From NCBI GenBank assembly GCA_050177605.1, contig JBFXGX010000003.1, positions 23,039 to 83,905 of the forward strand: a stretch of 60,867 nucleotides of DNA, in the 5' to 3' direction. The DNA comes from Candidatus Izemoplasmatales bacterium. GTDB lineage: Bacteria > Bacillota_I > Bacilli_A > Izemoplasmatales > Hujiaoplasmataceae. Every line of letters starts with the position of its first letter. The stretch's first letter is position 1. A program made the position numbers and the translations under genes. Under the pieces are notes generated by a model. The model saw only the letters and a list, made by a program, of their open reading frames with translations, was not told where the DNA came from and ran no database searches. Positions 25,052-52,704 of this stretch are shown piece after piece.

Positions 25052-25368
25052 TATTTCTTTTGATACTCCGCAATAAATCGTTTAAGTGTTGGCCCTGCCA
25101 AATCAGATTTTTGTGCCATTAAATAGATTTTATCTTGAATTTTAACGACCTCACCATCGCACGCATATAAAACACCAGATAAAAATAAAAGTACTTCATT
25201 CGCTTCACTAATCAAACAATTATCAAAATTAAGCACGATAGGTACACGGTGCATGACTGTTTCAGCGTAGTCATAGATCCCTTTACTGTCAGGGACTCTG
25301 TAAAACTTTACGTCCTCAAGATCAATATCACTTGTTTGTACTACCGGTTCTTTTTTAAACAATGCCAT
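25051..25368 (-). CDS. sepF: Cell division protein SepF
   Basis: IVLN, FLSGVLYA.DG.V.KI motif; sits between yggS and yggT. Confidence 0.85.
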   Translation of the reverse strand: MALFKKEPVVQTSDIDLEDVKFYRVPDSKGIYDYAETVMHRVPIVLNFDNCLISEANEVLLFLSGVLYACDGEVVKIQDKIYLMAQKSDLAGPTLKRFIAEYQKK

Positions 25369-26021
25369 TATTCTCCCTCATTTCGAAACAGAATCGATCC
25401 AAGTCGAAGATGGGTCGCATGTTCAAGAATTGCGATCTTGTAATCATGAGACATTCCCATCGATAAATACTCACACGGAGCATAGCCGAGTTTTAGGTTG
25501 TGGATCGTGTTTTTTAGTTCATACAATCGATGAAACTGTTGATGAATGATGGTGGAGTCTTCAGTGTTCTCTGCCATACCCATCAAGCCTACTACACGTA
25601 TTTTATCATATTTTTCTAGATTTAAAATAAAATTTGTGACTTCTTCAATTTTTAAACCTGTTTTTGATGACTCACCCGAGATATTGACTTCAACAAAACA
25701 GTCCAAAACATCATGTCGTTCCTTTTGAATTGCTTCAGCTAAACTGATTCGGTCTAAACTATGAAGGTAATCAATCAAGTTGATCATTTTTTTAACCTTA
25801 TTCGTTTGTAAGTGTCCAATAAAATGCCAAGTGACTCGTTGATCATGGATAGCCTCATATTTTTCAAGGAAATCAACAACTTTGTTTTCACCAAAATCTG
25901 TAATCTGATGATTTAACAAATCTTTCATCACGCTACTATCCACATATTTCGTCGCAGCCACAATTTTGACTGGCGACACTTCTTTGACTAATTGGTCAAG
26001 ATCTTTATTGAGCATAAACAT
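25368..26021 (-). CDS. yggS: YggS/YlmE PLP homeostasis protein
   Basis: VAATK, FGEN, WHFIGHLQTNK, LSMGMS.D, RLGS. Confidence 0.94.
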   Translation of the reverse strand: MFMLNKDLDQLVKEVSPVKIVAATKYVDSSVMKDLLNHQITDFGENKVVDFLEKYEAIHDQRVTWHFIGHLQTNKVKKMINLIDYLHSLDRISLAEAIQKERHDVLDCFVEVNISGESSKTGLKIEEVTNFILNLEKYDKIRVVGLMGMAENTEDSTIIHQQFHRLYELKNTIHNLKLGYAPCEYLSMGMSHDYKIAILEHATHLRLGSILFRNEGE

Positions 26022-27226: not shown

Positions 27227-28666
27227 TTAAAGGTATAGTGGTAATAAGATTGCTAAACTAATTGAATAGTATAACGATAATGTAATTATATCAGAAACCG
27301 TCGTAATGAATGGCCCTGATGCAACTGCTGGGTCAATATGTAATTTATCCATGAGTAATGGAATCACAGCACCAAGTAATGTAGAAACAATTAAAGCAAT
27401 ACAGATGGAAGTGGAAGTAACGAGCGCAGTCATTGTTGAAACATATGCAAATAATTCACCAGATCCAATGTAATTCACCCCAATCATCATCACAAAAATC
27501 ATGATTCCAAGTAATAAACCTTGGGCAATTCCTGTCCCTACTTCACGAAGCAGGTATCTTGTAATGACTTTTCGAGTAATCTCCTTTTTTTGAGTTGACA
27601 AGAATCGAATCATTACGGCAAGTGATTGCGTACCGGTATTTCCTGACATATCGAGAATTAAAGGTAAGTAAATCGCTAGTGAAGCTGCGAGAATCTTCGC
27701 ACCATCACTGCTTGTTAAATGGCCTTCAAAGAAACTAAGAATGATGGAAGTTACCATACTTAGTCCGAGTAAAATAGCGAGCCAAGGTAGTCTTTTCTTT
27801 ACACCATCGAGTAAGGTTTCTGTTTCGAGGTCAATATCGCTATCACTTAATGCGGCAAACTTTGTATAGTCTTCTGTTTTTGACTCGGAAATGATATCCA
27901 TCAAGTCATCATGGGTCACAATCCCAACAATATGCAAGTCCTCATCAACAATTGGCATGGCACTATCACCATAGTCTTGCATCATCATTGCGACTTCTTC
28001 TTTATCATCATGGGGATGAGCAAAGATGAGTCTCGTTTCCATAATATCTTCAATCAATTCATCAGCCCGTGCAACGATTAGTTGTTTTAACTTTAAATAA
28101 CCAACTAATTTCTGTTTCTCAACGACATAGATGATAGAAATAAATTCAGTGTCAGATGCTTTTTGAATCATCCGTTTCATCGCATCTTTGACAGTCATTT
28201 TCTTCGAAAACTCGATAAAACTATTTGACATTGCGGAACCAATTTCATCTTCTTTATAATCCCATAACCGCTTTAACTCAGCTCTTTTTTTAGGAGAAAG
28301 AAGACTGACAATGTCTAAATCCTCTTCTTCGTCATGGAGATATTGAAGTAAGTCTACAGCATCATCACTGTCCATATGGTCAATTATTTTTACAGCTAAC
28401 TGTAACGGTAAGTTCTTGATAACTTGAATTGAATCCTCATGTTCAAAATGCTCAAAAATACTCGCTGCAAGCGTGATATCAATCAAGGTAAAGATTTGAT
28501 TTATTTTCGATGGTTCTTCATCAAGAATCGCTCTGGAAATATCATATGGATGATATTCCTCGAGTGATTCCATTAAGTCCTCTTGGTCAAATGGTGTATT
28601 AAGGATATCTAATATCTCTTGTTTAAAGTCTCTGTCTTCATCAAAAAGACGATGTTCTTTTTCCAT
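27227..28666 (-). CDS. mgtE: Magnesium transporter MgtE, copy 2
   Basis: N-domain, CBS pair, RLPWL, GNTGTQS, DPAVASGPFITTVSD. Confidence 0.93.
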   Translation of the reverse strand: MEKEHRLFDEDRDFKQEILDILNTPFDQEDLMESLEEYHPYDISRAILDEEPSKINQIFTLIDITLAASIFEHFEHEDSIQVIKNLPLQLAVKIIDHMDSDDAVDLLQYLHDEEEDLDIVSLLSPKKRAELKRLWDYKEDEIGSAMSNSFIEFSKKMTVKDAMKRMIQKASDTEFISIIYVVEKQKLVGYLKLKQLIVARADELIEDIMETRLIFAHPHDDKEEVAMMMQDYGDSAMPIVDEDLHIVGIVTHDDLMDIISESKTEDYTKFAALSDSDIDLETETLLDGVKKRLPWLAILLGLSMVTSIILSFFEGHLTSSDGAKILAASLAIYLPLILDMSGNTGTQSLAVMIRFLSTQKKEITRKVITRYLLREVGTGIAQGLLLGIMIFVMMIGVNYIGSGELFAYVSTMTALVTSTSICIALIVSTLLGAVIPLLMDKLHIDPAVASGPFITTVSDIITLSLYYSISLAILLPLYL

Positions 28667-28678
28667 TAGGCACCCTCC

Positions 28679-30079
28679 TTATAACCATTGACTTAACAAA
28701 ATGGATGCTAAGCCAAAATAAATTAGTAGCGATATAATATCATTAATTGTTGTGATAAATGGACCCGAAGCTACTGCTGGGTCAACTTTAAATAAATTCA
28801 TTACTAAAGGAACAAGTGCTCCAGCAAGTGTTGCGACAACAAGCGCAATGGCGATTGAGAGTGCTATGACAGAAGCGAACGGTAAAATTTGTTCAAACGT
28901 TTGATGATCTAATAATTTTAAGACAATGACTAAGCCAAATAAGCCAATGGCAATCACAATACCATTGACAACACCAGTTAATAACTCTTTGATAAGATGT
29001 TTTGCGACACTTCTTTTCGTATCCAGTTGATTTGTCGCAAATAGACGAATAATCACACCTAAACTTTGTGTTCCTGTATTCCCTGCCATGTTTAAGATGA
29101 GTGGCATAAATAGCGCTAGTGTAGGAATTTGAGTTAAAACCCCTTCAAACCCCGATACGATAGAACTTGTAATTAAATTGACAAATAGAAGAATGACCAG
29201 CCATGGCATTCTTTTCTTAATTGTCGAAAGAATTGTTTCCTTCTCTTCATCAATATTGATATCGGTAACCCCAGCAAGTCTAGAATAATCGGTATCAGAT
29301 TCCTTGTTTAAGGCTTCAGTCATATCATCGAAAGATACAATTCCAAGCATCTTAAAATCGTTATCGACGATTGGAAGAAGTAAGAAGTCGTAGTTTTTCA
29401 TCATTTCAATCGCTTCTTCATTTTTTGCGGAAGGTGTTAAAGCGACGATGTTAGTCGCCATAATTTCTTCGATTGTCAATGTAGGTTGGTTCCCCGAACT
29501 GATTAACTCTTTTAAGGAAACTACACCTTCTAGATAGCCAAGCTCAGTCACGTATACATTCACAATATATTCGACATTTGGAGCTTGATCTACCACTTTT
29601 TTAATTGCTTGCTTCACAGTATCTGTTTTCTTAATTTCAACATAGGATGTATTCATAAACGAACCGACAACATCATCATCAAAACGAATCAATTCTTTAA
29701 TGTTAGGTCTTTTTCCTGGATGAATTAGAGAAAGATAGGTTGTTTGGTCTGTCGGGCTCATTTCTTTTAAAATATCCACAATATCATCTGGTTGCATTTC
29801 ATCAAAAACTTCGGCGATGACTCGTTTTGAAATCGTTAATAGAATCGGCACGATTTCTTCCGCATCTATAATCGAGATAATGTTCGCTAACTGCACTGCA
29901 GAAAACAATGAAATGAACTCTTGTTGGTCTGAAGCATCTAAATGAAGGAGCGTCTGAGACAAATCATAGTCATGAAAATCATCAAGTTTTTCTTTTTTTA
30001 ATTCTAAGGGCAAATCACTATGGAATAATAGCAATATTTCATTTTCGTAGTTCTCAACTTCCAAGTTTTCAAGTGACAT
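28679..30079 (-). CDS. mgtE: Magnesium transporter MgtE, copy 1
   Basis: CBS pair, RMPWL, AGNTGTQS, DPAVASGPFITTIND. Confidence 0.93.
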   Translation of the reverse strand: MSLENLEVENYENEILLLFHSDLPLELKKEKLDDFHDYDLSQTLLHLDASDQQEFISLFSAVQLANIISIIDAEEIVPILLTISKRVIAEVFDEMQPDDIVDILKEMSPTDQTTYLSLIHPGKRPNIKELIRFDDDVVGSFMNTSYVEIKKTDTVKQAIKKVVDQAPNVEYIVNVYVTELGYLEGVVSLKELISSGNQPTLTIEEIMATNIVALTPSAKNEEAIEMMKNYDFLLLPIVDNDFKMLGIVSFDDMTEALNKESDTDYSRLAGVTDINIDEEKETILSTIKKRMPWLVILLFVNLITSSIVSGFEGVLTQIPTLALFMPLILNMAGNTGTQSLGVIIRLFATNQLDTKRSVAKHLIKELLTGVVNGIVIAIGLFGLVIVLKLLDHQTFEQILPFASVIALSIAIALVVATLAGALVPLVMNLFKVDPAVASGPFITTINDIISLLIYFGLASILLSQWL

Positions 30080-30187: not shown

Positions 30188-31363
30188 TTACTTTTTGAAA
30201 CGTTCTTTTAACCAAGAAGGGATTTGAATATCTTCTTGTTCTTGAGAACTTTCAGGCATTTCTTTCGTAAACTCTTCTTTTTGTTTCTTTCCTTTTTTAC
30301 GGTCTTCTTTTTTTGACGTTACTTTACGTTCTTCGAAAATATGATCAATCGATGGTTGTTCAACTTGAGCTGGTTTTGCCTTCTCAATTGTAACTTCTTT
30401 GAAAATAGGATCTTCACTGAATCCTGTCGCAATCACTGTTACAATGATTTCATCGTCTAAATCAGAGTTAATCGCCGAACCGTAAATGACACTAATATCG
30501 GTAGTCGATGATTTTTGAATTTCTTCAATAATCTCATTGATTTCATAAAGAGATGCATCATACCCCGAGGTAATATTTACAATCGCATCCGTTGCGCCAT
30601 TGATCGATGTTTCAAGTAATGGACTTCTAATTGCGGCTCTCGCAGCTTCAACAGCACGATTCTCTCCACCAGCAATACCAATTCCCATTAAAGCAGTACC
30701 TTTATCTTTCATCACTGTTTTAACATCGGCGAAGTCAACATTGACCACTCCTGGAACAGCAATGATTTCAGTGATACCTTGAACACCTTGGCGTAATACG
30801 TTATCTGCTTCTCTAAATGCATCAAGATAAGGTGTATTCTTATCTACGATATAGAGTAATTTATCATTTGGTATCACAATAAGTGTATCAACATATGGTT
30901 TTAATTCTTCTAAGCCTTGGAGTGCGACACTCGAACGCTTTCGCCCTTCAAATCCAAATGGTTTCGTGACAATACCAATGGTCAAACAACCCATTTCACG
31001 CGAGATTCTTGCGACAACTGGTGCTGCACCAGTCCCAGTGCCTCCGCCCATACCTGCAGTAATAAATACCATATCCGTATCGGCTAATAAATCTCGAATT
31101 TCATCTTCAGATTCTAAAGCTGCTTTTCTTCCTACTTCCGGATCAGCTCCAGCGCCAAGTCCTCTTGTAAGTAATTTTCCAAGTTGAAGTCTTATGTCCG
31201 CTTTGGACAACTTTAAAACTTGGGCATCTGTATTCATCGCAACGAATTCAACACCTTGAACATCGTTTTCGATCATTCGGTTAATAGCAGAACCTCCGCC
31301 TCCACCGATACCAATCACCTTAATATTTGGCTTTTGATTAAATTTATCATTAATGTCAAACAT
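30188..31363 (-). CDS. ftsZ: Cell division protein FtsZ
   Basis: GGGTGTG tubulin signature, NVDFAD, C-terminal IQIPSWL peptide. Confidence 0.98.
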
Positions 31364-31500: not shown

Positions 31501-33200
<1,700 letters not shown>

Positions 33201-35129: not shown

Positions 35130-36135
35130 GATCAAATATCGTTCCTTGGTAACCTTTTTTTAGGTGCTTATAAGCTTTTTCAGTCACCACTCTACCTCGT
35201 GGTGTGCGGTTGATAAAACCTTTTTGAATTAAGAATGGTTCATAGACATCTTCTAAAGTTTGAGGATCCTCGCTAATTGAGGTTGCGATGGTCTCAAGTC
35301 CTACCGGTCCACCGTGATATTTTTCAATGATACCGAGTAAATATTCACGATCTTTTCGATCCAAACCTTCATCATCAATTTTAAGTTTATCTAATGCTGT
35401 TTTTGTTATATCAAGGGTAATCGTTCCATCACCTAAAATATCTGCAAAATCGCGAACACGACGAAATAAACGATTGACGATTCTCGGTGTTCCACGACTA
35501 CGCTTCGCAAGTTCAGTTAAAGCTTCCAACTCTGCAGGATATTCATAGATAGACGCGGTTCTTCTACAAATTGTTTCTAAATCTTGTAAATCATAAAACT
35601 CAAGTTTATGAACGATCCCAAATCGGTCTCTTAACGGGCCAGTTAAATCACCAAATCTGGTAGTGGCCCCAATCAAGGTAAATGGCGGTAAATCGACGCG
35701 AATTGACTTTGCACTAGCGTCTTTTCCAACAACGATATCAATGACAAAATCTTCCATCGATGAATACAGTATTTCTTCAACGATTTTTGGAAGCCGATGA
35801 ATTTCATCGATAAATAAAACATCCCCTGGTTCAAGCGATGTTAAAATCGCTGCAAGATCTCCTGTGCGCTCTACTGTTGGTCCTGAAACAATTTTAATGT
35901 TCACGCCAAGTTCATTTGCGATAACTTGAGCAAGGGTTGTCTTCCCTAAACCTGGTGGGCCATATAAAAGGACATGATCTAGCGATTCATTTCGTTTTTT
36001 TGCAGCTTCTACTGCAACTTGAATCATTTCCTTTACATTTTGTTGGCCAATGTATTCACGAAAAATGCGCGGACGTAGTGTCGCTTCAAGTTCATCATCG
36101 ATTAGTAAATTATTGGCAATAACTCGGTTGTCCAT
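35116..36135 (-). CDS. ruvB: Holliday junction branch migration helicase RuvB
   Basis: [35 protein letters not shown]. Confidence 0.97.
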
Positions 36136-36204
36136 ATCATAACACCTCACAACTATTATACCTTATTTTCAACTAATTTCATTCTACAAATTTATGTTCT
36201 TCAG

Positions 36205-36233
36205 TTGAATATTTATAATATCTATATTATAAT
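36205..36233 (+). promoter_or_regulatory. Sigma-A promoter of the giant helical-protein operon
   Basis: TTGAAT-N17-TATAAT, then AGGAGG RBS at 36252-36257. Confidence 0.7.
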
Positions 36234-36264
36234 GGACTTAAAGTAGATTATAGGAGGTGGAAAT

Positions 36265-39200
36265 ATGGCAAAACAAAGCGATATCATCAAAGTTACGATA
36301 GATTCCTATGAGTCAATTAAACGTGATTCTGATACAGCCATAGCCTCACTCAATGATCAACTTTCATCCTTACTTGAAGAAAAAAAACAACGATTAACTG
36401 AACTTGAAAAAGAATATGAACAAGTAGAACAAAATCATTTAGATCGATTTATACAAGTCGAAAATGATTATAATATCCTTGTCGAAGAGATCAAAAGAAA
36501 ATACATCGGAGACTTTGAAACACTCGATATAGAATATAAAGAATTAACAGATGTTATCGAATCAAAATCGTCCGATGAAATGGAAAAATATCAAAGCGTT
36601 TTATCTGAATATCAAGCTCAAAAAGATGAAGCTTACCAACGTTTTTTATCTTTAATCAATGAGTCCAATCAAATGATAGATGATGAGATGAAAGTTCATA
36701 CTGAATTCATCCAAAAAGAGGAACAAAAATATCTCTCTGAGGCTTTTAACTATCAATCAATGCAGTCAAAACAGTCTGATGATTTGTTATGGTCAATCGA
36801 GCAATCCAAAAATGCACTCTTAGAACTATCGAGTGACTTACGAGAAAAGACATCAAATCAAGTTTCCTTTATGAACGAGAATGTTTTTTCTACATTAACT
36901 AGTTTACGACAAACAAAACATAAAATATCTGCCCTATTTAAGAGTACGACCGATATCTATTCAAAACAAAAAGAGAAAATTGAGGCTTTATCACATCAAC
37001 GTCAAAAACCTCATTCTTTAATCAATCAAACGGTGATTCGTCAGTTTGTCAAACAAATTCGAGAAGTGAATCAAAAGAAAGAAGAATTCTCCAAGTTGAT
37101 TTCAAAAGAATTAATTGATTCAAAGAAGATTATTGGCGGAAGAATTCTCGAGGCAAATGAAAATAACGATAAAAATTTACTAGAAAAATACATTCTTCAA
37201 TATGAAATGATTGAAAGCAAAGCTGACTACCTTTTGAAACGTAATCAGTCGATGGCTGACCTCCTCATTTCGAAATATCAAGCTGAGATCAAGAAAATAA
37301 AAATTGATTCTTTTAAACGTGTTGAGGAAATTCGACTTGCTTATTATATGCCAACGATGTTTTTCCAAAACAGTATTATTCTTTATTCAAACTTCTCTTT
37401 CTACGTAAATGAATCCTTTGATGAACTCGATAACCTGTTATCCGACTTAATCTTGTTTAATCAGAAATATCTTGATGCAAAAATGGAATATGTTGTCGGC
37501 GATTCCAAACTACTTGAGGATTATAAAATTAATCTAATGGTCCAAATTAATAATGTCTGTAATTCACTCACTGACTATATCACTCAAATTGATAACTACA
37601 GCAAAGAAATTATTACACTTGAATCCAGAAATCAACTTGAAATTGCGGAAGTTAAAAAAAGGATTGAAAATGCAGATATTGAAGGTGACTATTTAAAATT
37701 TGAGTTATCTTTAGAAAAAGATCATTTCTTTGTCGATCATCAACACGAATCCAATCTTAAGATGATTTCCTTAGAGAAACAACGTGAAGCATCATTAATT
37801 AAAATTCAGCGAGAAATTGCTCTTGCAAGACAAAATGATGCCTTAAGTAAAGTCAAAACTGCTTATCTAAAAGAGATTGCAAAACTTGAAGAAGCCTCTC
37901 ATCAAGATGCCTACTTTAAGGATTTTGCATTTGCGAGAACAAGATACGAATATGCTAAGCAACAAAATGACCTTACCTTCGAAATAAGTAAGGAGACCGC
38001 TGAGGCAGTCCATCAACGAGAATTATATTTATTTGCCAAACGTTTTGAAACCGAAGAAAACGTCTTTTATGCCAGTCGTTCAAGAGGAAGTAGCGCAGTT
38101 ATTTCCTTTGTTCATCACGCTCAACGGATGATCGACATGAATCAAGCTGAGTCAAACTATATTATTTCACAGATTGATTCATTACAATCTCCTCGAACAT
38201 ACGTTTATTACTTAGAAAATACACGCACTCGATTAATCGAACATTTCAATCTTGAGTTTGAACAAAAAATCAAAATTAACCGTAAAGCACTAACGTTAAT
38301 TCATCATCAATTTTACCGTGTATCGAAAGCAATTCAAGAAGCTTTTTCACTTTCTAGAAATGACTTATCCAAGAAACTTCTTCTTCTGGTGGCTGAAAAT
38401 GCCGATGTGATTACAAGCCAGTTAGTATCCAAGGATTTGTATCTATACGATCGAATGAAGATGTCATCATTAATTTCTGAATTACTCGAAGATTTATTTA
38501 TCGATAACCATCAATTAGGTCAGATGAAACAAATTGAAAAGTGGATCAATGTTTATTTAGAAAAAGACATTATTAACTCCAAAGAAATGTTACAATCGAT
38601 GGTAAAAAAATCTCCAAAAAAACTTGTCCGTCCTGTGAAAGATTACTTAACCTTGTCGATACTACAACTCGATGAGTTAAATCTAAATATTAAGAACTTG
38701 CTCGATGAAATTGAGAAGTCCATGCTAGAAAAAGATGTGGCTATCATTGAAAATGCCGAAATGAAAGCAAACAAAACGAAAAATCTAGTGAATCAGGAAT
38801 ACGATCGATTGATCTATCTTGCAGATAAACAAGATGAGATGCGAAAACTTCAGTCGGCGCAACTAGTCCATGACACTTTGGAAATTGATTATGTCTTTAA
38901 AACAAAGGTCAAAGAAATCAATAGTATCTACGAAAAATCAGTGAAATCCGAAGAAGCAAAGCTCTTCTTTATCAAAGAGAATATAATTACCTTAATGAAG
39001 GAAGCAAAAAAGGCACATCAAAAAGCCTTGCGTAAGCTCGAGAAAGCATACATTGACGAACAAATGGATATTGATTTAAAACTGAGAGAGCATGAAAAGG
39101 CCCATGATGCGATTATTAAAGTACTTAACACGACCTATTTAAGTGATATCTCTTATATCGATAGTTTACAAAAGGAACAAGCGAAATTACTCGAGTCCAC

Positions 39201-39720
39201 AATGGCAAAACTTGATGAGTCCGCTATCCAAATTCCTTTACAATATGAAATGGAAATGAAAGCTCTAAAGCTAAAAAAAGATGAGTTAGTAGAAACAAAA
39301 CAACTTGCATTACTTGATGAATATACTCACATTGAAGAAAAGAAATTTGTTTCGCTTCCTAATTACAAATCTGAAATTGAACATATCAAGGAACGTTTAC
39401 CTGAAGACTATTTGTCATTATACAAAAAAATAACCGAAGCTGAAGATACTTTCTTAAATCAATACTTAACGATTAATCAAGATTATCAAGCCGATTTTGA
39501 TGCTTATATTCAGTCAAAGAAAGAAAAATCATTTTCACCAACTTATGAAAATGTGTTTTATCAGCCTTTTGAGTCTTTTGAAAAAATATCAACCAATATG
39601 TTAACGAAGAACAAGCAAGTTTATGATGATACACTATTTAAAGTAAAAGCAGCGAAAGAACAAATAACTACTGAAGAAAATAATTTTAAAGAGAAACAAA
39701 ATCGAATCATCAACGATTAG
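36265..39720 (+). CDS. Giant hypothetical alpha-helical/coiled-coil protein (1151 aa)
   Basis: Long ORF with strong RBS; rich in E/K/Q/L/Y and poor in Gly/Pro; no recognisable catalytic motif or TM segment. Confidence 0.88.
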   Translation: MAKQSDIIKVTIDSYESIKRDSDTAIASLNDQLSSLLEEKKQRLTELEKEYEQVEQNHLDRFIQVENDYNILVEEIKRKYIGDFETLDIEYKELTDVIESKSSDEMEKYQSVLSEYQAQKDEAYQRFLSLINESNQMIDDEMKVHTEFIQKEEQKYLSEAFNYQSMQSKQSDDLLWSIEQSKNALLELSSDLREKTSNQVSFMNENVFSTLTSLRQTKHKISALFKSTTDIYSKQKEKIEALSHQRQKPHSLINQTVIRQFVKQIREVNQKKEEFSKLISKELIDSKKIIGGRILEANENNDKNLLEKYILQYEMIESKADYLLKRNQSMADLLISKYQAEIKKIKIDSFKRVEEIRLAYYMPTMFFQNSIILYSNFSFYVNESFDELDNLLSDLILFNQKYLDAKMEYVVGDSKLLEDYKINLMVQINNVCNSLTDYITQIDNYSKEIITLESRNQLEIAEVKKRIENADIEGDYLKFELSLEKDHFFVDHQHESNLKMISLEKQREASLIKIQREIALARQNDALSKVKTAYLKEIAKLEEASHQDAYFKDFAFARTRYEYAKQQNDLTFEISKETAEAVHQRELYLFAKRFETEENVFYASRSRGSSAVISFVHHAQRMIDMNQAESNYIISQIDSLQSPRTYVYYLENTRTRLIEHFNLEFEQKIKINRKALTLIHHQFYRVSKAIQEAFSLSRNDLSKKLLLLVAENADVITSQLVSKDLYLYDRMKMSSLISELLEDLFIDNHQLGQMKQIEKWINVYLEKDIINSKEMLQSMVKKSPKKLVRPVKDYLTLSILQLDELNLNIKNLLDEIEKSMLEKDVAIIENAEMKANKTKNLVNQEYDRLIYLADKQDEMRKLQSAQLVHDTLEIDYVFKTKVKEINSIYEKSVKSEEAKLFFIKENIITLMKEAKKAHQKALRKLEKAYIDEQMDIDLKLREHEKAHDAIIKVLNTTYLSDISYIDSLQKEQAKLLESTMAKLDESAIQIPLQYEMEMKALKLKKDELVETKQLALLDEYTHIEEKKFVSLPNYKSEIEHIKERLPEDYLSLYKKITEAEDTFLNQYLTINQDYQADFDAYIQSKKEKSFSPTYENVFYQPFESFEKISTNMLTKNKQVYDDTLFKVKAAKEQITTEENNFKEKQNRIIND

Positions 39721-39729
39721 AAAGGAGTC

Positions 39730-42666
39730 ATGATGGCCAAAAAACAAGACAGTCTTCAAACTGATTTTGATAATATCACATCCTATAAAGACGAAAATCA
39801 AACAGCGCTAGATAAAGAGTTAAAATTGTATGAAGACTTCTTCCAAAAAGTCAACCATCATGCGCAAACTCATCGTCAAATTACGATGAATCAACTTTCT
39901 GAAATTGAAGAAAGACTTCATCATTTAAGAACAGAAGCGATTGAAATCAAAAATCAGTTGTTTTATCATGATGAATATACGATTGTAGATCGCCAACAAA
40001 TGATTTCCGATACTGAAAAACGTGTAGGTGATGAGAATCGGTCTTTTTATAATAGTCAATTTGAAGATAAGAAAGAAATGCTTGATACCATTGATTATTT
40101 GAACAAAGCTTTATTTCAAACAAAATCCAACTTTTTTGAAGAATATGAATTACATTATCTTCAAACGATTCTAGGACACGATGAATTTTATGAGTATTTT
40201 ATGCAAGCCGCTTCTTCTTTCCAACAAGTGCTTGAATCGCATCAAAAAGAGATTGTGACTCTTTTTTATAAATTAGATGATGAAATCAAAAAAATGGATG
40301 ATTCTATTTCAGAAATCATTAAAAGAAAAAATCGCACTGTGTCTCTAAACAATCATTTCTATGATGAACAAATGAAGTATTTTATCGATAACCAATTATT
40401 GTTTAGTGCGGAAAACGATCCAACAACCATTGATATTCAAGCATTAATATCCGATAAGATTGCTCAAGTTGAAACCTTTGAAGAATATTTAAAGGAAGAA
40501 GATCAAAAACTCGTTCAGGAGTTACAAAATGAGTATCAATCTTTATACGATAAAATATTGAAAAGACAACTTCAACGAAAATCAAATCTTTTAATTGATA
40601 ATACTGATTTATTTGATCAACCTCAAAATTACCTTGAGTCCTATCAAGCAAAAATACTTGCTGCTCATCAAACGAATAAGAAAACCGAATTAAAAAATTA
40701 TATTCGCACCTATTCTTCGATTAAACGATATAAAAAATATCAAAAATCGATTGAAAAGAAGACAATTAATTTATTAAAGCCTGTAGAAAAAGAAAAAAAG
40801 GAAAAACTATTGGCTTACAGACTTCATTCTTTAAGTACTATGTCCACATTGAATCAATACTTGGATGAATATACTGATTTTATGGATATTGATCCATTCT
40901 ATGCACAAATCATTGGAGATAAATCTTCAAAAATGATTAAGGATGAATTAAATCGACTTCAAATTCTAAAGGCAAACAAAGAGTTAAAGGTCAATATCGA
41001 TTATGATATCGAGTCATTGAAAATCAAGAATAAGATTAATCTAGTTGAGTTACAACTTCAACATGAAGTAAAAAAGCATCTTCTTCTTCAAGAACAAGAT
41101 TTATTGGTAACAATTGCTAGTTTGAACTTAAATCTTATTACCAACAAGAAATGTGTGATTAAGCAATATAATGAGGTAAAAAAAGAATCCTTGCAAATTG
41201 CAAAGATTCAGGAAGTCATCGAAACTCATCTACACTTTTTACATGCATTAAGCAATGTAACGAGAGAAATGGAATCAAAAGCAGTTATTCAAATGATTAA
41301 GGAAATTCGACAAGATGAGACTCATTTGATTCATGTTTCTGATGCAGCTTCAAAAATCAAACTAAAACTAAAAGAATATGATATTAAAGCTTTACATTTT
41401 AAAACGATGCTTGAGAATGAACTTAGTTATTTAGTTATTCAATCTTCTCGTGTTGACGAAGAAAACAAAGTTCATAATGAGTTTATTTTGACCACTTATC
41501 AAAATCAAATGAGATTTGCTGAAGAACAAATCACACTCGCCGAACGTGAGTATAGACTAAGAGGCGAAGCCATCAATAGCGCTACCGAAGGTGAAAAACA
41601 ATACTTTGAAGATTTAATTCATCGAAAGATGAAAAAATATGAATCAGATTTGAATCAGGAACAACATGAGTATGAAGCCCTACTTTATCATAATCGACAT
41701 ATCTTATCTGAAACAACAGATCCAAAGATTCATAAAATTCTAGAAAAAGAAGCGAAATCATTAAAAGCCAAACATGATCGATTTGTAGAAGATATGTGGA
41801 AAGAAATATCTAAAGACGAAATGATCGCCTCTGCGAAACGCCGGATGATGGATTTAGATGAAGAAGCTTTGGATGCTCTAGATGATGCAAAAACATTAAG
41901 AGACGAAACGCTGAATCAAATGGCTTCTATTTACGAAGATGCTAGACAGCATTATGAAGTCATCAAACCTTATCTTGATAACAAAATGAATATTTTGGAT
42001 CCTGATTTTTTCAATCATTTAGAAAGAATGAATCAACGTTATGATTTTAAAATGAAACTCAGCGAAGCATCCCTTGATGCGGAAACAGAACAATTGATTG
42101 ATGACTTCAAAAAAATCTATTTTGAAGAAGTTCCAGTTGTTGATAAAGAAGTTTACAATAATATGATTGCTACGCTAAGTGCAAAAAGAGAACAAATCCG
42201 TTTATCATATCAAGAAAAATTAACCATGATTGAAAATCGATATCAATCAGAAATAGCTAAAATCGATCAAACGCTACTGGATCAATATGGTAAACTTGAT
42301 ATATTAGCGAACGAAGAATTACTCATCGTCGAAAACTCAAAAAGGGAAATCAACCAAGAACTAGATGCTTTGCTTCTTGCCTATGACGAAGAAAAAGCAA
42401 ATCTTGGGGAGAAGTTATCGACATCAACCATTCAGTATATGCAGGAATACCAATTATCGATATCGAATAACAAAAAATATATCGATACCTTATCTTCAAA
42501 TTTTGATAAATTACTGAAGAGTTATCAACCTTATATGAATATCATTAAAAAAGATCGACGTGTTAAAATGATTTCAACTCACCATCACCACAAATACAAA
42601 CGTCTAGAACGAAAAGGTATGAATGATATTCACCGATTAATCAAAAACACAACACTAAAAAAATAG
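39730..42666 (+). CDS. Giant hypothetical alpha-helical/coiled-coil protein (978 aa)
   Basis: 9-nt gap after the previous ORF with AAGGAG RBS; similar composition; no recognisable motif. Confidence 0.88.
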   Translation: MMAKKQDSLQTDFDNITSYKDENQTALDKELKLYEDFFQKVNHHAQTHRQITMNQLSEIEERLHHLRTEAIEIKNQLFYHDEYTIVDRQQMISDTEKRVGDENRSFYNSQFEDKKEMLDTIDYLNKALFQTKSNFFEEYELHYLQTILGHDEFYEYFMQAASSFQQVLESHQKEIVTLFYKLDDEIKKMDDSISEIIKRKNRTVSLNNHFYDEQMKYFIDNQLLFSAENDPTTIDIQALISDKIAQVETFEEYLKEEDQKLVQELQNEYQSLYDKILKRQLQRKSNLLIDNTDLFDQPQNYLESYQAKILAAHQTNKKTELKNYIRTYSSIKRYKKYQKSIEKKTINLLKPVEKEKKEKLLAYRLHSLSTMSTLNQYLDEYTDFMDIDPFYAQIIGDKSSKMIKDELNRLQILKANKELKVNIDYDIESLKIKNKINLVELQLQHEVKKHLLLQEQDLLVTIASLNLNLITNKKCVIKQYNEVKKESLQIAKIQEVIETHLHFLHALSNVTREMESKAVIQMIKEIRQDETHLIHVSDAASKIKLKLKEYDIKALHFKTMLENELSYLVIQSSRVDEENKVHNEFILTTYQNQMRFAEEQITLAEREYRLRGEAINSATEGEKQYFEDLIHRKMKKYESDLNQEQHEYEALLYHNRHILSETTDPKIHKILEKEAKSLKAKHDRFVEDMWKEISKDEMIASAKRRMMDLDEEALDALDDAKTLRDETLNQMASIYEDARQHYEVIKPYLDNKMNILDPDFFNHLERMNQRYDFKMKLSEASLDAETEQLIDDFKKIYFEEVPVVDKEVYNNMIATLSAKREQIRLSYQEKLTMIENRYQSEIAKIDQTLLDQYGKLDILANEELLIVENSKREINQELDALLLAYDEEKANLGEKLSTSTIQYMQEYQLSISNNKKYIDTLSSNFDKLLKSYQPYMNIIKKDRRVKMISTHHHHKYKRLERKGMNDIHRLIKNTTLKK

Positions 42667-42695
42667 AACACAACATCGCGTTGTGTTCTTTTTTT
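42665..42695. terminator. Terminator between the helical-protein operon and deoB
   Basis: AGAACACAAC-ATCGC-GTTGTGTTCT-TTTTTT. Confidence 0.85.
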
Positions 42696-42697
42696 AT

Positions 42698-43876
42698 TTA
42701 TCTTAAATCTTTCAGTAATGATTTCCCTATTTCTGTTTGATCTACATTGAAATTATCCGCAATTGTCGCCGCGATATCCGCAAAGGTATCACCAGTTGGC
42801 AAGAACGAACCATTTAAGAGTTTATTATAAATAAATAATGGAATAAATTCTCTTGTATGATCTGTACCTTTAAAAGTTGGATCATTACCATGGTCAGCGG
42901 TAATCATTAACAAATCATCATCATGAAGGAGCGAAACAAGGTCGCCTAGATCATGATCAAATTCTTCCATCGCTAACTTATATCCGAGGGGATCACGACG
43001 ATGTCCGTACAAGGCATCGAAATCGACAAGGTTTGTAAATGCAAGCCCAGTAAAGTCTTTCTTCGCTAAATCCATCGTTTTGATCATTCCATCATGATTC
43101 GAGACAATTGAATAATGATCAGTAATACCAGAACCATTGAAGATATCTTTAATTTTTCCAACAGAAATGACATCAAATTTATTTTCTTTTAAAATATCTA
43201 GCACTGTAGTACTTGATGGAGAAAGTGCATAATCATGGCGGTTAGGAGTTCTTTTAAAACCAGTGGTAGGATCACCAATGTATGGTCTAGCAATAATTCT
43301 GCCTACTTTCCATTCATCTCTGAGACACAATTCTCTAGCTTTATGACAGATGTCATAGAGTTCCTCTAAAGGAATAATTTCCTCATGTGCTGCGATTTGT
43401 AATACAGAGTCAGCACTAGTATAAACAATTAAATCCCCAGTTTCCATTTGATGTGCCCCTAAGTCACGAATGATATCTGTTCCTGAAGCAGCGATATTCC
43501 CCACGATTTTTCTTCCTGTTTGTTTTTCTAGTTCATCGAGTAATTCTTTTGGAAACCCTGTATCTGTAAAAGTTTGGAATGGAATCTCAGTTTTAATTCC
43601 CATGATTTCCCAGTGTCCAGTCATCGTATCTTTTCCATTCGATACTTCTGCAAGTTTGAGTGTGTTTGCACGGGGATGTGCTACCGGAGCAACACCTTGG
43701 ATTGCGGTCAAATTTCCATACCCCCAAGATTCAAGTAAAGGAAGGTGGACGCCACCTGTAGCTTTCGCTAAATTCCCAATAGTATTGGCACCAACATCGC
43801 CAAATTTATCTGCGTCAGGTGCTTCTCCAACACCTACACTATCGATTACGATTAAAAATACTCTTTTAAATTTCAT
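42698..43876 (-). CDS. deoB: Phosphopentomutase
   Basis: DSVGVG, GKDTMTGHWE, VYTSADS, NLVDFD..YGHRRD, TADHGNDP, DHTRE. Confidence 0.96.
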   Translation of the reverse strand: MKFKRVFLIVIDSVGVGEAPDADKFGDVGANTIGNLAKATGGVHLPLLESWGYGNLTAIQGVAPVAHPRANTLKLAEVSNGKDTMTGHWEIMGIKTEIPFQTFTDTGFPKELLDELEKQTGRKIVGNIAASGTDIIRDLGAHQMETGDLIVYTSADSVLQIAAHEEIIPLEELYDICHKARELCLRDEWKVGRIIARPYIGDPTTGFKRTPNRHDYALSPSSTTVLDILKENKFDVISVGKIKDIFNGSGITDHYSIVSNHDGMIKTMDLAKKDFTGLAFTNLVDFDALYGHRRDPLGYKLAMEEFDHDLGDLVSLLHDDDLLMITADHGNDPTFKGTDHTREFIPLFIYNKLLNGSFLPTGDTFADIAATIADNFNVDQTEIGKSLLKDLR

Positions 43877-43877
43877 A

Positions 43878-44786
43878 TTATTCCTCTTTTCCAAAAGCTC
43901 TAGGATGAGCTTGATGATAACTTTCTTGTATATGTTTTTTTGATAAATGGGTGTAATTTTCAGTTGTCAAGATATCTTCATGTCCTAACAATTCTTGAAC
44001 AGCTCTTAAATCTGCCCCATGTTCTAATAGGTGAGTAGCGAAGGAATGCCTCAGTGTATGTGGCGAGATTTCTTTTTCAATTCCCGCTTTTTTTGCTAAA
44101 GCTTGAATCATCTTATAAAATCCGATTCGCGATATCCTTTCACCTGATTTATTCAGGAAGAGAACTTCTTTTTCTTTAGGAGACAGCTGTGGTCTTCCAC
44201 TGACGATATAATCACGTAAAGCGAAAATGGCTTCTTCTCCAAGTGGAACAATGCGCTCCTTGTTTCCTTTTCCTGTTATATTGATCAATGCCATATTTAA
44301 ATGGATATCACTAATATCGACATTAATTAATTCTGATACTCTAAGCCCTGCGCCGTATGCAAGTTCAATCATCGCACGGTTTCTTAATTCGAGAGGTGAA
44401 GTTCCTTTTTTCGTCTCTTCGATGAGTGATTCAATCTCGGCTTCATTCAGCACTGTTGGTAAAGTTTTCGCAACTTTTGGCTTCGGTATTTTTAAGACGA
44501 TATTTTCATCGACTAATTTTTCTGTCAAACAAAATTGATGAAAACTGCGTACAGAAGATAACTTTCTTGAAATACTTTTTGCCGATAGATTTTGGCGTTT
44601 TAAATGGAGTGTGTAATTTACTAAATGTTGTTTACTTACCTGGTCCATCCGTTTAAAACCATATTGTTCTGTTAAAAATGAGATATAGTCTTTGAGGTCA
44701 TTTTGATAAGAAGCAATGGTATTCTTCGACAAATTTTTGGTTACCTTTAAATAATATAAGTACTCTTTTAATAGGTTGTCAATCAC
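43878..44786 (-). CDS. xerD: Chromosomal tyrosine recombinase XerD
   Basis: GLRVSE, GKGNKER, HTLRHSFATH, LLGH, catalytic Tyr; xerD-deoB order as in Bacillus ripX-drm. Confidence 0.9.
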   Translation of the reverse strand: MIDNLLKEYLYYLKVTKNLSKNTIASYQNDLKDYISFLTEQYGFKRMDQVSKQHLVNYTLHLKRQNLSAKSISRKLSSVRSFHQFCLTEKLVDENIVLKIPKPKVAKTLPTVLNEAEIESLIEETKKGTSPLELRNRAMIELAYGAGLRVSELINVDISDIHLNMALINITGKGNKERIVPLGEEAIFALRDYIVSGRPQLSPKEKEVLFLNKSGERISRIGFYKMIQALAKKAGIEKEISPHTLRHSFATHLLEHGADLRAVQELLGHEDILTTENYTHLSKKHIQESYHQAHPRAFGKEE

Positions 44787-50955: not shown

Positions 50956-52704
50956 TTATAGCATACTCTTTATTTTATCTAAGATAAACACCATCGAAAA
51001 GGTGTCTTGAGCGCAGTAGGCAAGCAAGTGTTGATATGCAATATCTCTCTCAATGTTATTCATCTTAGAAAATTGAATATATGTCTCGTACGCCATGGTT
51101 CCATTGCGTACGGCTAGGTCTTCATATGCATGATTTCCAAGCACGGACAGAATTTTCTTGATCGAATAACTTCCCGATTGCTCTGGATGATAGAAATTAT
51201 AGGTTTCAGCGGCTTCCTCTGTAAATCCTTGATTCAAGAAAAACTCTCTGTCATTTTTAAGTAGTAATAACAAATCAAATATCCGAGGTAATATCTTATC
51301 AATTTGCGATGCATATTCAACAAAGAATTCCTTCATTTCAATCAGTCTTGAAATTTCAAAAGTTTGGTTATAGACGATAATACTTCCTCCGTCATCTTCA
51401 ATCAATTGCAACAAGGATTCAAGTAATTCTTTACGATGATCATCGTTGTCTTTGGATAGATAATAGTAGTGCTTAATTGGATCGTTTTCACTGGTTTTTT
51501 TATGTAAGCTAAATTGAAATACACTCTGCGAATATGGCGACTCACCTTCAAAACGGGGAAGTGGCGAAGGATAGGCCTCAAAGTCTAGAAAATAATAAGG
51601 ATATTTCAAGTTTTTTAAATAGAGTTTTACCTTTTTTTTATTAATAAATACATAATCATTTTCAACACAATAGCGCTGCATTAAATTCTTCTCTCGATGC
51701 AACCAAGAAATCGGTACATCAAGCAGTCCAACCATCCCTTGATTCATCAGTTCGTATGTATCATGATGGATATCATTCTTGTGTGGTCCTTCTTTAAAAC
51801 CTAAATGAGCATAGAAGTAATTTGTTATCGCATTTTCCTTTGGTACATGCGCAAAACAAGTGTCGACAAAAGGACATTCAAAAGATTTTCCTTTTAGACA
51901 TTCATTATCTACCAAGTCACAAGGTGAGTTATCATTTAATTCTTTTAAATTAATCATACGATAGAGGTCAGAGATTATTTTATCTTGGAGCGAATCGACA
52001 AAATCAGTCATATCAAAGATAACAAAAAGGTCAATTAAATCATCCGCTTCTTCAAGCGTCTTGGCACGGAGCACATAATGCGGATTGAGTGCCACATAAT
52101 AAAACCTTGGTTTCAAAGCTTTGATATCATCTGGTAGTGTGAAATATGAGAAAGCAAGATCATAGACAATTCGACCAGTATCGTAGTGTCTCGATAAAAC
52201 GCGCCTTACTTTGTCATGATAGTTCGTATGATCCCCTTCTCGAACAAACACTTTTCTTGGAATATATACGCCATTCTTCATTTCAAATAGCGGATATTTC
52301 TTTTTATTATAGCTGTAGTTCAGATTTGTAAAATGTGTTTGTGTAGAGGAAGAGACTTTGAATACTGAGAGCTGATTGTCTACTTTTACAAAGAAAGGGA
52401 GTGTCGTTTGGAGCGTTTCCGATTCAAACACTCGTTCAAATACATAATTTTTTTGATAACTGCAATCATTCTTATTTAGAAATGTTTGTTCAAAAAGACG
52501 GGATATTGGGTCAAGAGTTTTTTCTTCTCCTGATTCGAAGATTATTTCTTCTCCTACAAAATCATCCGTTTGGTCTTCATCGCTACGATGCACTATTCGA
52601 TTGTTTATCTCATTTATGTTATGTGAAGAAGCTAGCGCACTAAATCTTCGACATCTTAAATGATTTAATAAATCTCTGGTACGAATCATAGATGTTTTCT
52701 CCAA
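50956..52704 (-). CDS. DUF2779-like protein with a C-terminal RNase H-like exonuclease fold
   Basis: YFLDFE, FQFSLH, IIVYN..FE, DLL, SYSIK, YC..DT; Cys cluster in the middle. Confidence 0.75.
   Translation of the reverse strand: MEKTSMIRTRDLLNHLRCRRFSALASSHNINEINNRIVHRSDEDQTDDFVGEEIIFESGEEKTLDPISRLFEQTFLNKNDCSYQKNYVFERVFESETLQTTLPFFVKVDNQLSVFKVSSSTQTHFTNLNYSYNKKKYPLFEMKNGVYIPRKVFVREGDHTNYHDKVRRVLSRHYDTGRIVYDLAFSYFTLPDDIKALKPRFYYVALNPHYVLRAKTLEEADDLIDLFVIFDMTDFVDSLQDKIISDLYRMINLKELNDNSPCDLVDNECLKGKSFECPFVDTCFAHVPKENAITNYFYAHLGFKEGPHKNDIHHDTYELMNQGMVGLLDVPISWLHREKNLMQRYCVENDYVFINKKKVKLYLKNLKYPYYFLDFEAYPSPLPRFEGESPYSQSVFQFSLHKKTSENDPIKHYYYLSKDNDDHRKELLESLLQLIEDDGGSIIVYNQTFEISRLIEMKEFFVEYASQIDKILPRIFDLLLLLKNDREFFLNQGFTEEAAETYNFYHPEQSGSYSIKKILSVLGNHAYEDLAVRNGTMAYETYIQFSKMNNIERDIAYQHLLAYCAQDTFSMVFILDKIKSML

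Follow-up and report, generated by a model that had tools for sequence, protein, structure and literature searches.

A lineage-restricted operon for two giant, length-invariant helical proteins beside ruvB in Izemoplasmatales: candidate structural scaffold of wall-less cells

Introduction

What could two neighboring genes for giant helical proteins, neither with a match to a characterized family, be doing in a bacterium that has no cell wall? The question is posed by a stretch of 60,867 nucleotides (nt) from a Candidatus Izemoplasmatales bacterium (assembly GCA_050177605.1, contig JBFXGX010000003.1, positions 23,039 to 83,905 of the forward strand). We call this whole stretch the window, and all coordinates below count from its first letter unless a locus is named. 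Two consecutive open reading frames (ORF1 and ORF2) within it had been singled out by a first-pass annotation, made by a model from the letters and a list of reading frames, as a candidate new filament or membrane scaffold system. Lengths are given in amino acids (aa), and residue numbers of ORF2 follow its 977-aa form.

36265..39720, + strand: ORF1, 1151 aa; open frame, predicted all-helical, without family match
39733..42666, + strand: ORF2, 977 aa from the second ATG (978 aa from 39730); predicted all-helical, without family match

The shape, division and osmotic resistance of wall-less cells are only partly understood, mainly from parasitic mycoplasmas and spiroplasmas. A published study places the loss of peptidoglycan at the ancestor of the order Izemoplasmatales (PMC10868615). 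From sequence and structural models, the pair described here appears to consist of new, lineage-specific, coiled-coil-rich structural proteins, whose function we predict on the same basis.

Results

Length is kept while sequence drifts

Sequence changes quickly in both proteins, and length is nearly fixed. Homologs are 22-53% (ORF1) and 16-55% (ORF2) identical to the window proteins, against 81-83% for RuvB and 61-83% for JetC, comparators from the same genomes, the RuvB figure being that within the window's own family of genomes (f1). We found 65 homologs of ORF1 and aligned 63, which measure 1145-1161 aa, occupy an alignment of 1163 columns and show a median of three gap runs each; ORF2 homologs measure 918-989 aa. 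Prolines stand at fixed places in ORF1: P249 and P363 never vary, and P991, P1032 and P1046 hardly ever do. Of its 33 invariant columns, 22 fall within residues 225-478. The best conserved part of the protein surrounds a predicted turn.

37162..37764, + strand: ORF1 residues 300-500, where conservation is highest, around the predicted hairpin turn at 300-302 (commonest-residue share 0.60-0.76 per 50-residue block, against 0.33-0.57 elsewhere)

In ORF2, the most conserved 50-residue block is 551-600 (0.72). Judging by these alignments, selection acts mainly to hold the proteins at a given length, with a few turns and loops in place. Such retention of length while sequence drifts is typical of molecular struts and rulers, as in the arms of SMC proteins and in synaptonemal-complex proteins.

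Composition and searches for known families

The pair had been annotated as charged and poor in glycine and proline, and the counts agree: glycine makes up 0.6% of ORF1 and 0.8% of ORF2, proline 0.9% of both, lysine plus glutamate 21-22%, and cysteine 0.1% of both. As also annotated, the two proteins start alike (MAKQSD in ORF1, MAKKQD in ORF2 when read from 39733), and Pfam and NCBIfam scans and hydropathy windows gave no Walker A motif, transmembrane helix, signal peptide or catalytic motif in either. The highest 19-residue Kyte-Doolittle windows reach 1.03 in ORF1 and 1.10 in ORF2, too low for a transmembrane segment; neither is N-terminal, and the N-terminus of both lacks a hydrophobic stretch.

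At E values up to 1, neither protein matched Pfam or NCBIfam, save for sub-threshold DUF922. A Pfam scan of 31 ORF2 homologs likewise gave scattered sub-threshold matches, with DUF922 in 6 of the 31 (best E 0.0038, below cut-off). The profiles of EzrA (PF06160), DivIVA (PF05103) and intermediate filaments (PF00038, at E up to 1) matched neither protein, and a search of the PDB by sequence gave no match for either. In the ESM Atlas, ORF1 led to an unnamed cluster only (0.81) and ORF2 to a ninein-like coiled coil as its best named match (0.76); structural TM (template modelling) scores were at most 0.26, and all of these values are below a meaningful level. No confident match to a characterized family emerged for SMC/SbcC, EzrA or phage tape measures, and the Izemoplasma literature searched holds no description of either protein. 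Paralogy of ORF1 and ORF2 was considered and could not be demonstrated (BLASTP E 0.33; hhalign probability 4.5%); their pairwise comparison does leave one 12-residue loop motif in common.

Predicted architecture

AlphaFold2 models built on the family alignments are all-helix for both proteins, as first annotated, with a predicted local distance difference test (pLDDT) score of 79.6 each and predicted TM (pTM) scores of 0.34 (ORF1) and 0.39 (ORF2); both proteins are predicted to be cytoplasmic. Single helices run for 126-337 residues. The ORF1 model has helices at 7-135, 149-299 and 303-639, four shorter ones in 645-855, and then 860-1088 and 1092-1150, and that of ORF2 has long helices at 79-214, 388-561, 587-660 and 805-930 and loops at 215-232, 562-586 and 743-777. 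With a rise of 0.15 nm for each residue, a continuous helix of 337 residues would be about 50 nm long.

Fold searches gave no specific match, returning generic long antiparallel coiled coils and four-helix bundles only. The top Foldseek rows are MukB (E 1.8e-4 and 4.3e-5), followed by SMC arms, at TM 0.05-0.16 and a root-mean-square deviation (rmsd) above 50 Å. With VIA-align, ORF1 shows a hairpin around the turn at 300-302 (alignments covering 175-424, with SMC arm fragments at Z about 11, below the helical noise level) and a four-helix bundle at 675-822 (best Z 12.8, over 685-819, ordinary for helical models). ORF2 helices from near 150 and from near 887 fall in one bundle (best Z 9.4, again ordinary for helical models). 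The models suggest that both proteins are elongated antiparallel bundles, the details of which are uncertain. Complex prediction for ORF1 100-500 with ORF2 380-977 scored 0.15 against a mark of 0.32 in a run without controls, and counts neither for nor against binding.

A narrow hydrophobic stripe near 18/5

In single sequences, the strongest hydrophobic period is 3.63 residues for ORF1 and 3.61 for ORF2, above the shuffle maximum, with small power at 3.50 and 3.667; windowed spectra peak at 3.62. When hydrophobicity is averaged over each family, ORF1 470-639 stands apart, and the other nine of the ten helix segments of at least 100 residues have their maximum at 3.59-3.65, higher than the 95th percentile of shuffles. 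Power at 3.5 is at most 7 in six of those nine; within ORF1, six of the seven long segments that pass the shuffle control have power 0.8-7 at 3.5 against 55-118 at the peak. The strongest autocorrelation occurs at lags of 18 and 11 in ORF1 and of 7 and 11 in ORF2. Helices of this length (130-170 residues) do not separate 18/5 (3.60), 51/14 (3.64) and 11/3 (3.67).

The general pattern is non-heptad, near 18/5 and not strictly hendecad. The first-pass annotation had called both proteins hendecad-patterned, and the 11-residue ladders that it named are real locally (Y51/F62/V73/F84, V54/V65/I76/L87 and H58/Y69/Y80/Y91 in ORF1; SYQEKLTMIEN-RYQSEIAKIDQ at 826-847 in the 978-aa form of ORF2). As a description of the whole, the term was not confirmed: the overall period is 3.62-3.63, and the range over segments, 3.59-3.65, is nearer 18/5 than 11/3. 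A heptad-only pattern is also excluded, with power at 3.5 near nil in most segments. A period close to 18/5 implies nearly straight helices.

The stripe is narrow. Hydrophobic residues are concentrated in an arc of about 120 degrees, or about a third of the circumference, that reaches some 60 degrees to each side of its center, and the mean angle from the stripe is 94-117 degrees for lysine and arginine and 98-120 degrees for aspartate and glutamate, with no class-A separation. A stripe of this kind fits protein-protein packing better than a lipid belt.

Conserved loops and a basic tail

Four short features stand out in the family alignments.

36676..36711, + strand: ORF1 loop motif I-D-x-E-M-[KR]-[VI]-H-x-[DE]-F-[IV], residues 138-149, between helices 1 and 2 (I138, H145 and F148 in 63/63; pLDDT 60-70)
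41452..41487, + strand: ORF2 loop motif V-x-E-E-x-K-[IV]-H-x-E-F-[IV], residues 574-585, in the predicted loop 562-586 (pLDDT 34-54) and the most conserved block
39694..39717, + strand: ORF1 C-terminal motif K-Q-x-R-I-I-N-x (R1147 in 63/63, Q1145 and N1150 each in 58/63)
42544..42663, + strand: last 40 residues of ORF2, a basic amphipathic tail (net charge +5 to +14 in 31/31 homologs; predicted helix 942-972)

The two loop motifs reduce to a common form, [IV]-D-x-E-x-[KR]-[VI]-H-x-[DE]-F-[IV]; among the ORF2 homologs, its phenylalanine is kept in 28 of 31 and its histidine in 18 of 31. Several stretches are conserved and yet modelled with low confidence (130-200, 400-480 and 1020-1100 in ORF1; 1-52, 562-586 and 743-777 in ORF2). 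These stretches, together with the motifs and the tail, are likely candidates for contact sites; in both proteins conserved motifs sit where model confidence is low, and such a pairing would be expected where a protein folds onto its partner.

The basic tail of ORF2, noted in the first pass, is real and conserved. It is 23% lysine and 9% arginine, its charge is kept while its sequence varies, and its sign is opposite to that of the whole protein (net charge about -17). The median of its best 18-residue hydrophobic moment is 0.57, against a 90th percentile of 0.43 in the rest of the protein.

Distribution and synteny

Homologs with a source name are hypothetical proteins of Candidatus Izemoplasmatales, Mycoplasmatota, Tenericutes, Bacilli or Firmicutes metagenome-assembled genomes; complete genomes with the pair are those of Candidatus Izemoplasma sp. 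B36, Mycoplasmatota bacterium WC30 and strain zrk2. In f1, ORF1 and ORF2 were each present in 24 of the 24 genomes searched, always adjacent, in the same order, and in every one of them between ruvB-queA and deoB-xerD. An ORF2 profile built from 31 homologs and searched over 121 genomes of the order matched in 99 (52/55 in f1; 45/55 and 1/10 in two further families, f2 and f3). Searches with the ORF1 sequence found nothing in 16 genomes outside f1; a same-size pair (1113-1196 and 931-977 aa) nonetheless occupies the equivalent position in the f2 and f3 loci fetched, three of each. A 1196-aa ORF lies 5' of the ORF2 homolog in two of the f2 loci, the third being cut by a contig end, and the f3 loci, beside or near ruvB, have pairs of 1151 and 974, 1113 and 931, and 1114 and at least 639 aa, the last being truncated where the fetched sequence ends.

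The far side of ORF1 carries ruvB- and queA-sized ORFs in 18 of 20 loci, contig ends cutting the other two; a RuvB match itself is on record for 4 of those 18. Seven further named loci, three of them in complete genomes, read queA and ruvB, then ORF1 and ORF2, then deoB-, xerD- and hemW-sized ORFs. The two genes thus co-occur, side by side in all relatives examined.

Against 1.84 billion representative proteins, the ORF2 profile found 92 clusters only, most full-length ones measuring 945-982 aa. We rejected the weak matches of that search (E 1e-10 to 1e-3) as homologs. They belong to surface proteins that carry Flg_new, Big_2 or LRR domains and whose coiled-coil stalks resemble ORF2 805-930 in several stretches, which points to repeat likeness. 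By this distribution, the pair reads as vertically inherited, lineage-restricted core genes and not as a mobile element.

Expression signals and layout of the locus

The transcription unit described in the first pass was largely recovered, with amendments to the start of ORF2 and to the terminator.

36205..36233, + strand: promoter-like TTGAAT (36205-36210), 17-nt spacer and TATAAT (36228-36233); 10 of 12 matches in the scan
36252..36257, + strand: ribosome-binding site AGGAGG for ORF1, 7 nt upstream of the ATG
39724..39727, + strand: ribosome-binding site GGAG for ORF2, in the 9-12 nt gap 3' of the ORF1 stop
42665..42695: bidirectional hairpin terminator with T runs on both strands, common to ORF2 and convergent deoB (hairpin proper 42665-42689)

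The promoter and AGGAGG motifs are present as annotated. Promoter-like sites are no commoner than chance in 35900-43000, which is AT-rich (30 found, 33.6 expected from shuffles), so what speaks for the one before ORF1 is its position in the 114-nt ruvB-ORF1 intergenic region. Both frames are open, and the start of ORF2 had been placed at 39730, 9 nt from the ORF1 stop. Its GGAG lies 2 nt 5' of that ATG and 5 nt 5' of the ATG at 39733; given these spacings, and because a public protein collection carries the 977-aa form (N-terminus MAKKQD), the true start is probably 39733, giving a 12-nt gap. From the ORF1 stop to the ORF2 start, the distance is at most 15 nt, or the genes overlap, in 19 of 20 loci (longest-ORF calls).

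Terminator-like sites number seven in the region, against 2.6 expected. The hairpin had been annotated as the operon's own; it is there, and it serves convergent deoB as well. The pair does lie opposite most of its neighbors, the + strand carrying 5 of the 48 window ORFs of at least 150 aa, one of which (43470-43943) overlaps deoB antisense. The flanks queA, ruvB, deoB, xerD, hemW and lepA were confirmed. The GC content of the pair is 0.30-0.32 against about 0.35, and its A-rich coding strand results from lysine, glutamate and asparagine codons.

Division, shape and chromosome genes around the pair

Genes for cell division and shape were searched in five genomes (three of f1, one of f2, one of f3). 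FtsA, DivIVA and EzrA were not found in any of the five (for DivIVA, none over the cut-off), and each of the five has SepF. No MreB turned up in any of the four genomes of f1 and f3; the f2 genome has three tandem MreB paralogs (G035:C1:439752-442789; E 6e-88 to 5e-92, below the equivalog cut-off), which recalls Spiroplasma. In the window itself, ftsZ and sepF lie on the strand opposite to the pair.

30188..31363, - strand: ftsZ, 4.9 kb from the pair
about 25114..25278, - strand: sepF, downstream of yggS (25368-26021, - strand)

An ftsZ cluster about 5 kb away and without ftsA and divIVA had been part of the first-pass argument. The distance stands, and neither FtsA nor DivIVA was found in the genome, but the cluster has SepF, a candidate membrane tether for FtsZ, and its link to the pair is one of proximity. 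The same part of the window holds two tandem mgtE magnesium transporter paralogs between ftsZ and surE (27227-30079, - strand) and, between tgt and a queuosine-precursor transporter, a PduL-type phosphate propanoyltransferase (32628-33200, - strand; E 4e-79); no microcompartment genes were seen among the ORFs scanned. On the other side of the pair, 50956-52704 (- strand) encodes a 582-aa protein with a sub-threshold match (E 1.1e-17, 64 bits, cut-off 225) to UU173, a family that takes its name from a protein of Ureaplasma.

Canonical SMC (TIGR02168) was over its cut-off in none of 41 genomes of the order. There is instead an operon of JetA, JetB (DUF4194/MksE) and JetC, with no JetD beside it (loci L031 2008-5247 and L032 1620-4853), and JetC-like proteins, with AAA_29 and SbcC_Walker_B matches, occur in 24/24 f1, 8/8 f3 and 0/8 f2 genomes. 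JetABC may be a housekeeping condensin of the MksBEF type rather than a Wadjet defence system. The idea that the pair replaces SMC was considered and rejected, JetABC being present alongside it.

Outside the order, in other families of its class, giant proteins also occur near ruvAB. A giant hypothetical protein poor in glycine and proline stands divergent from ruvA-ruvB in 6 of 7 genomes of family f15 (L084 1723-5319, + strand). Proteins of this type measure 1189-1215 aa in 58 aligned sequences over 1215 columns, and so are length-invariant; their named homologs belong to Acholeplasmataceae, Mariniplasma anaerobium and Peloplasma aerotolerans. One genome of family f20 has an unrelated-looking 1205-aa protein with a basic C-terminus at the equivalent site beside ruvA-ruvB (L098 4687-8304, - strand). 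No second giant ORF follows in these fetched loci (L084, L098). Compared with the pair, the giant ruvAB-adjacent proteins give hhalign E values of 0.0023, 1.1e-4 and 0.0029 (probability 11-57%) and nothing in BLASTP, none of it significant; on sequence grounds, shared descent is a possibility.

Discussion

Our preferred answer, which we hold tentatively, is that ORF1 and ORF2 form a cytoplasmic scaffold of fixed-length rods anchored to membrane or DNA. It is prompted by sequence drift with few indels, fixed prolines and turns, a narrow straight stripe, the lack of a catalytic or nucleotide-binding motif, a coupled gene pair never seen apart, and a basic anchor. In the model we put forward, the operon would be a vertically inherited housekeeping unit of free-living, wall-less Izemoplasmatales, encoding two cytoplasmic, rod-shaped, all-alpha-helical proteins. 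A stripe that recurs about every 3.6 residues would lead to nearly straight bundles of two to four helices, tens of nanometers long, and not to left-handed heptad coiled coils. Because selection appears to keep length and the positions of turns and loops, the proteins may act as a fixed-length strut or spacer and thus as a structural scaffold. Since the genes are translationally coupled and always together, we propose a putative ORF1-ORF2 hetero-oligomer as the probable working form. The lysine- and arginine-rich amphipathic C-terminal helix of ORF2 would tether this scaffold to an anionic surface, for which we favor the inner face of the membrane over DNA.

Several considerations weigh against this reading. 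The low pTM scores (0.34 and 0.39) make the relative arrangement of the helices uncertain, and AlphaFold2 tends to draw long isolated helices for any coiled-coil-like sequence. The conserved place beside ruvB may reflect plain vertical inheritance and be uninformative on function. As the two proteins are not detectably related, arguments from symmetry are weak, and a basic tail suits DNA as well as lipid. Nor would the pair be a simple replacement for MreB, because f2 keeps the pair while at least one f2 genome has three MreB genes. What the analysis shows is the genes and their conservation, the helical prediction, the period, the constant length, the basic tail and the lack of ATPase, transmembrane and signal features. 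The heteromer, filament or membrane-shaping role proposed in the first pass is inferred, as are the target of the tail, the detailed geometry of the rods and any part they play in cell shape, in division or in supporting the membrane.

Likeness to characterized systems is one of general build. Scy and FilP of Streptomyces, crescentin and other intermediate-filament-like proteins are, like the pair, very long, poor in glycine and proline, charged, cytoplasmic and free of enzymatic motifs. The non-heptad 51-residue repeat of Scy amounts to 51/14 or 3.64 residues per turn, which falls inside the 3.59-3.65 measured here and is compatible with it, at helix lengths that do not separate it from 18/5 or 11/3. 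In contrast to these proteins, with which it has no sequence or profile similarity, the pair consists of two different proteins in one operon, is strictly length-invariant, and has its rod interrupted at constant positions by conserved loops and prolines. EzrA, the FtsZ regulator of Firmicutes with spectrin-like repeats, resembles the pair in its all-helical antiparallel bundles and in belonging to a Bacilli lineage, here one with FtsZ and SepF in which FtsA was not found. Its PF06160 domain, however, was matched neither in the pair nor in the five genomes, and the proteins of the pair have no N-terminal membrane anchor and are twice as large. In the attachment organelle of Mycoplasma pneumoniae, HMW2 and further coiled-coil proteins are giant structural proteins that make up an internal skeleton of a wall-less bacterium. 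The pair differs in that no similarity to them was detected, its hosts are free-living and the families are restricted to different lineages; we know of no attachment-like organelle in Izemoplasmatales.

If the tail were to bind DNA, the rods might instead bridge or organize the nucleoid, working alongside the recombination and segregation genes that surround them. We consider this unlikely, though it is the most serious competitor. In its favor, every locus seen has the pair divergent from ruvB with xerD two genes away, although such synteny within the order is expected from descent alone. Also in its favor are the giant glycine- and proline-poor proteins that stand divergent from ruvA-ruvB in f15 (6/7) and in one f20 genome, although they have no significant similarity to the pair. 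The ORF2 tail, with its lysine and arginine, its conserved charge and its variable sequence, would suit such a role, but no DNA-binding domain, ATPase or nuclease was found in either protein. The failure of canonical SMC to appear in any of the 41 genomes might seem to open a place, yet the JetA-JetB-JetC operon of f1 (24/24) and f3 (8/8) leaves no condensin vacancy, and the best Foldseek rows, although they are SMC and MukB arms, reach TM 0.16 at most.

Apolipoprotein-type lipid-binding helices, also raised in the first pass, fared worse. It is improbable that ORF1 and ORF2 are two independent amphipathic-helix proteins of the exchangeable-apolipoprotein or late embryogenesis abundant type, coating and stabilizing a naked membrane without forming a rod or complex. 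The organism is wall-less, the helices are amphipathic and locally 11-spaced, and family profiles searched against PDB chains did give marginal matches, of ORF2 750-914 to apolipoprotein A-I (E 0.0046) and of ORF1 862-1005 to apolipophorin-III (E 0.081). ORF2 805-930 also weakly matches repeat proteins that themselves have sub-threshold PF01442. Every one of these matches is under threshold, however, as is typical of periodic charged helices, and PF01442 has no Pfam match in either protein. An arc of about 120 degrees is no wide lipid face, charges are not sorted in the class-A manner, and the measured period is nearer 3.6 than 3.67. The invariant prolines, conserved loops and scarce indels argue for one defined architecture, and proline-punctuated 22-mers, present in exchangeable apolipoproteins, are lacking in these intracellular proteins.

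Less probable still is that the two are degenerate SMC, MukB or Rad50 members without their ATPase heads. The Foldseek E values and the similar sizes speak for it, and the putative long antiparallel helical hairpins of the models and the conservation of arm length while sequence drifts, known for SMC, recall SMC arms. Neither protein matches Walker A/B, SMC_N or SMC_hinge, while JetC of the same lineage, part of the MksBEF-like complex it already has, does give AAA_29 and SbcC_Walker_B. With cysteine at 0.1% in both proteins there is no room for a CxxC zinc hook, TM scores are 0.05-0.16 at an rmsd above 50 Å, and the conserved parts are internal and not terminal.

A mobile or phage-derived pair (tape measure or scaffold) or an anti-phage defence, suggested by large helical proteins, slightly lower GC and a strand opposite to the neighbors, is close to refuted: PHROGs and PADLOC matched neither protein, the flanks are housekeeping genes with no phage morphogenesis module, integrase, repeats or phage genes alongside, all three families of the order carry the pair in one conserved position, and codon usage for lysine, glutamate and asparagine explains the A-rich coding strand.

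Returning to the fixed-length rod scaffold, it is tempting to speculate more broadly, though we consider it unlikely, that free-living wall-less Bacilli have an unrecognized internal skeleton. Its elements would be fixed-length helical rods of about 20-50 nm, tethered to the membrane by a basic amphipathic tail: ORF1 and ORF2 in Izemoplasmatales and, in Acholeplasmataceae-like genomes, a positional counterpart next to ruvAB that measures about 1200 aa. Such a skeleton would have assumed tasks in mechanical support, cell shape or the division site that disappeared together with the wall, MreB, FtsA and DivIVA.

The pair is of interest because it is conserved across the order, keeps its length and belongs to the biology of cells without a wall. 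If it is DNA-associated, it would bear on chromosome organization in a lineage where canonical SMC was not found. If it is a scaffold, it would be a new cytoskeletal element, and a tractable one, since cultured strains with complete genomes carry it. Either way, about 6.4 kb of conserved 'hypothetical' coding sequence gains a testable hypothesis.

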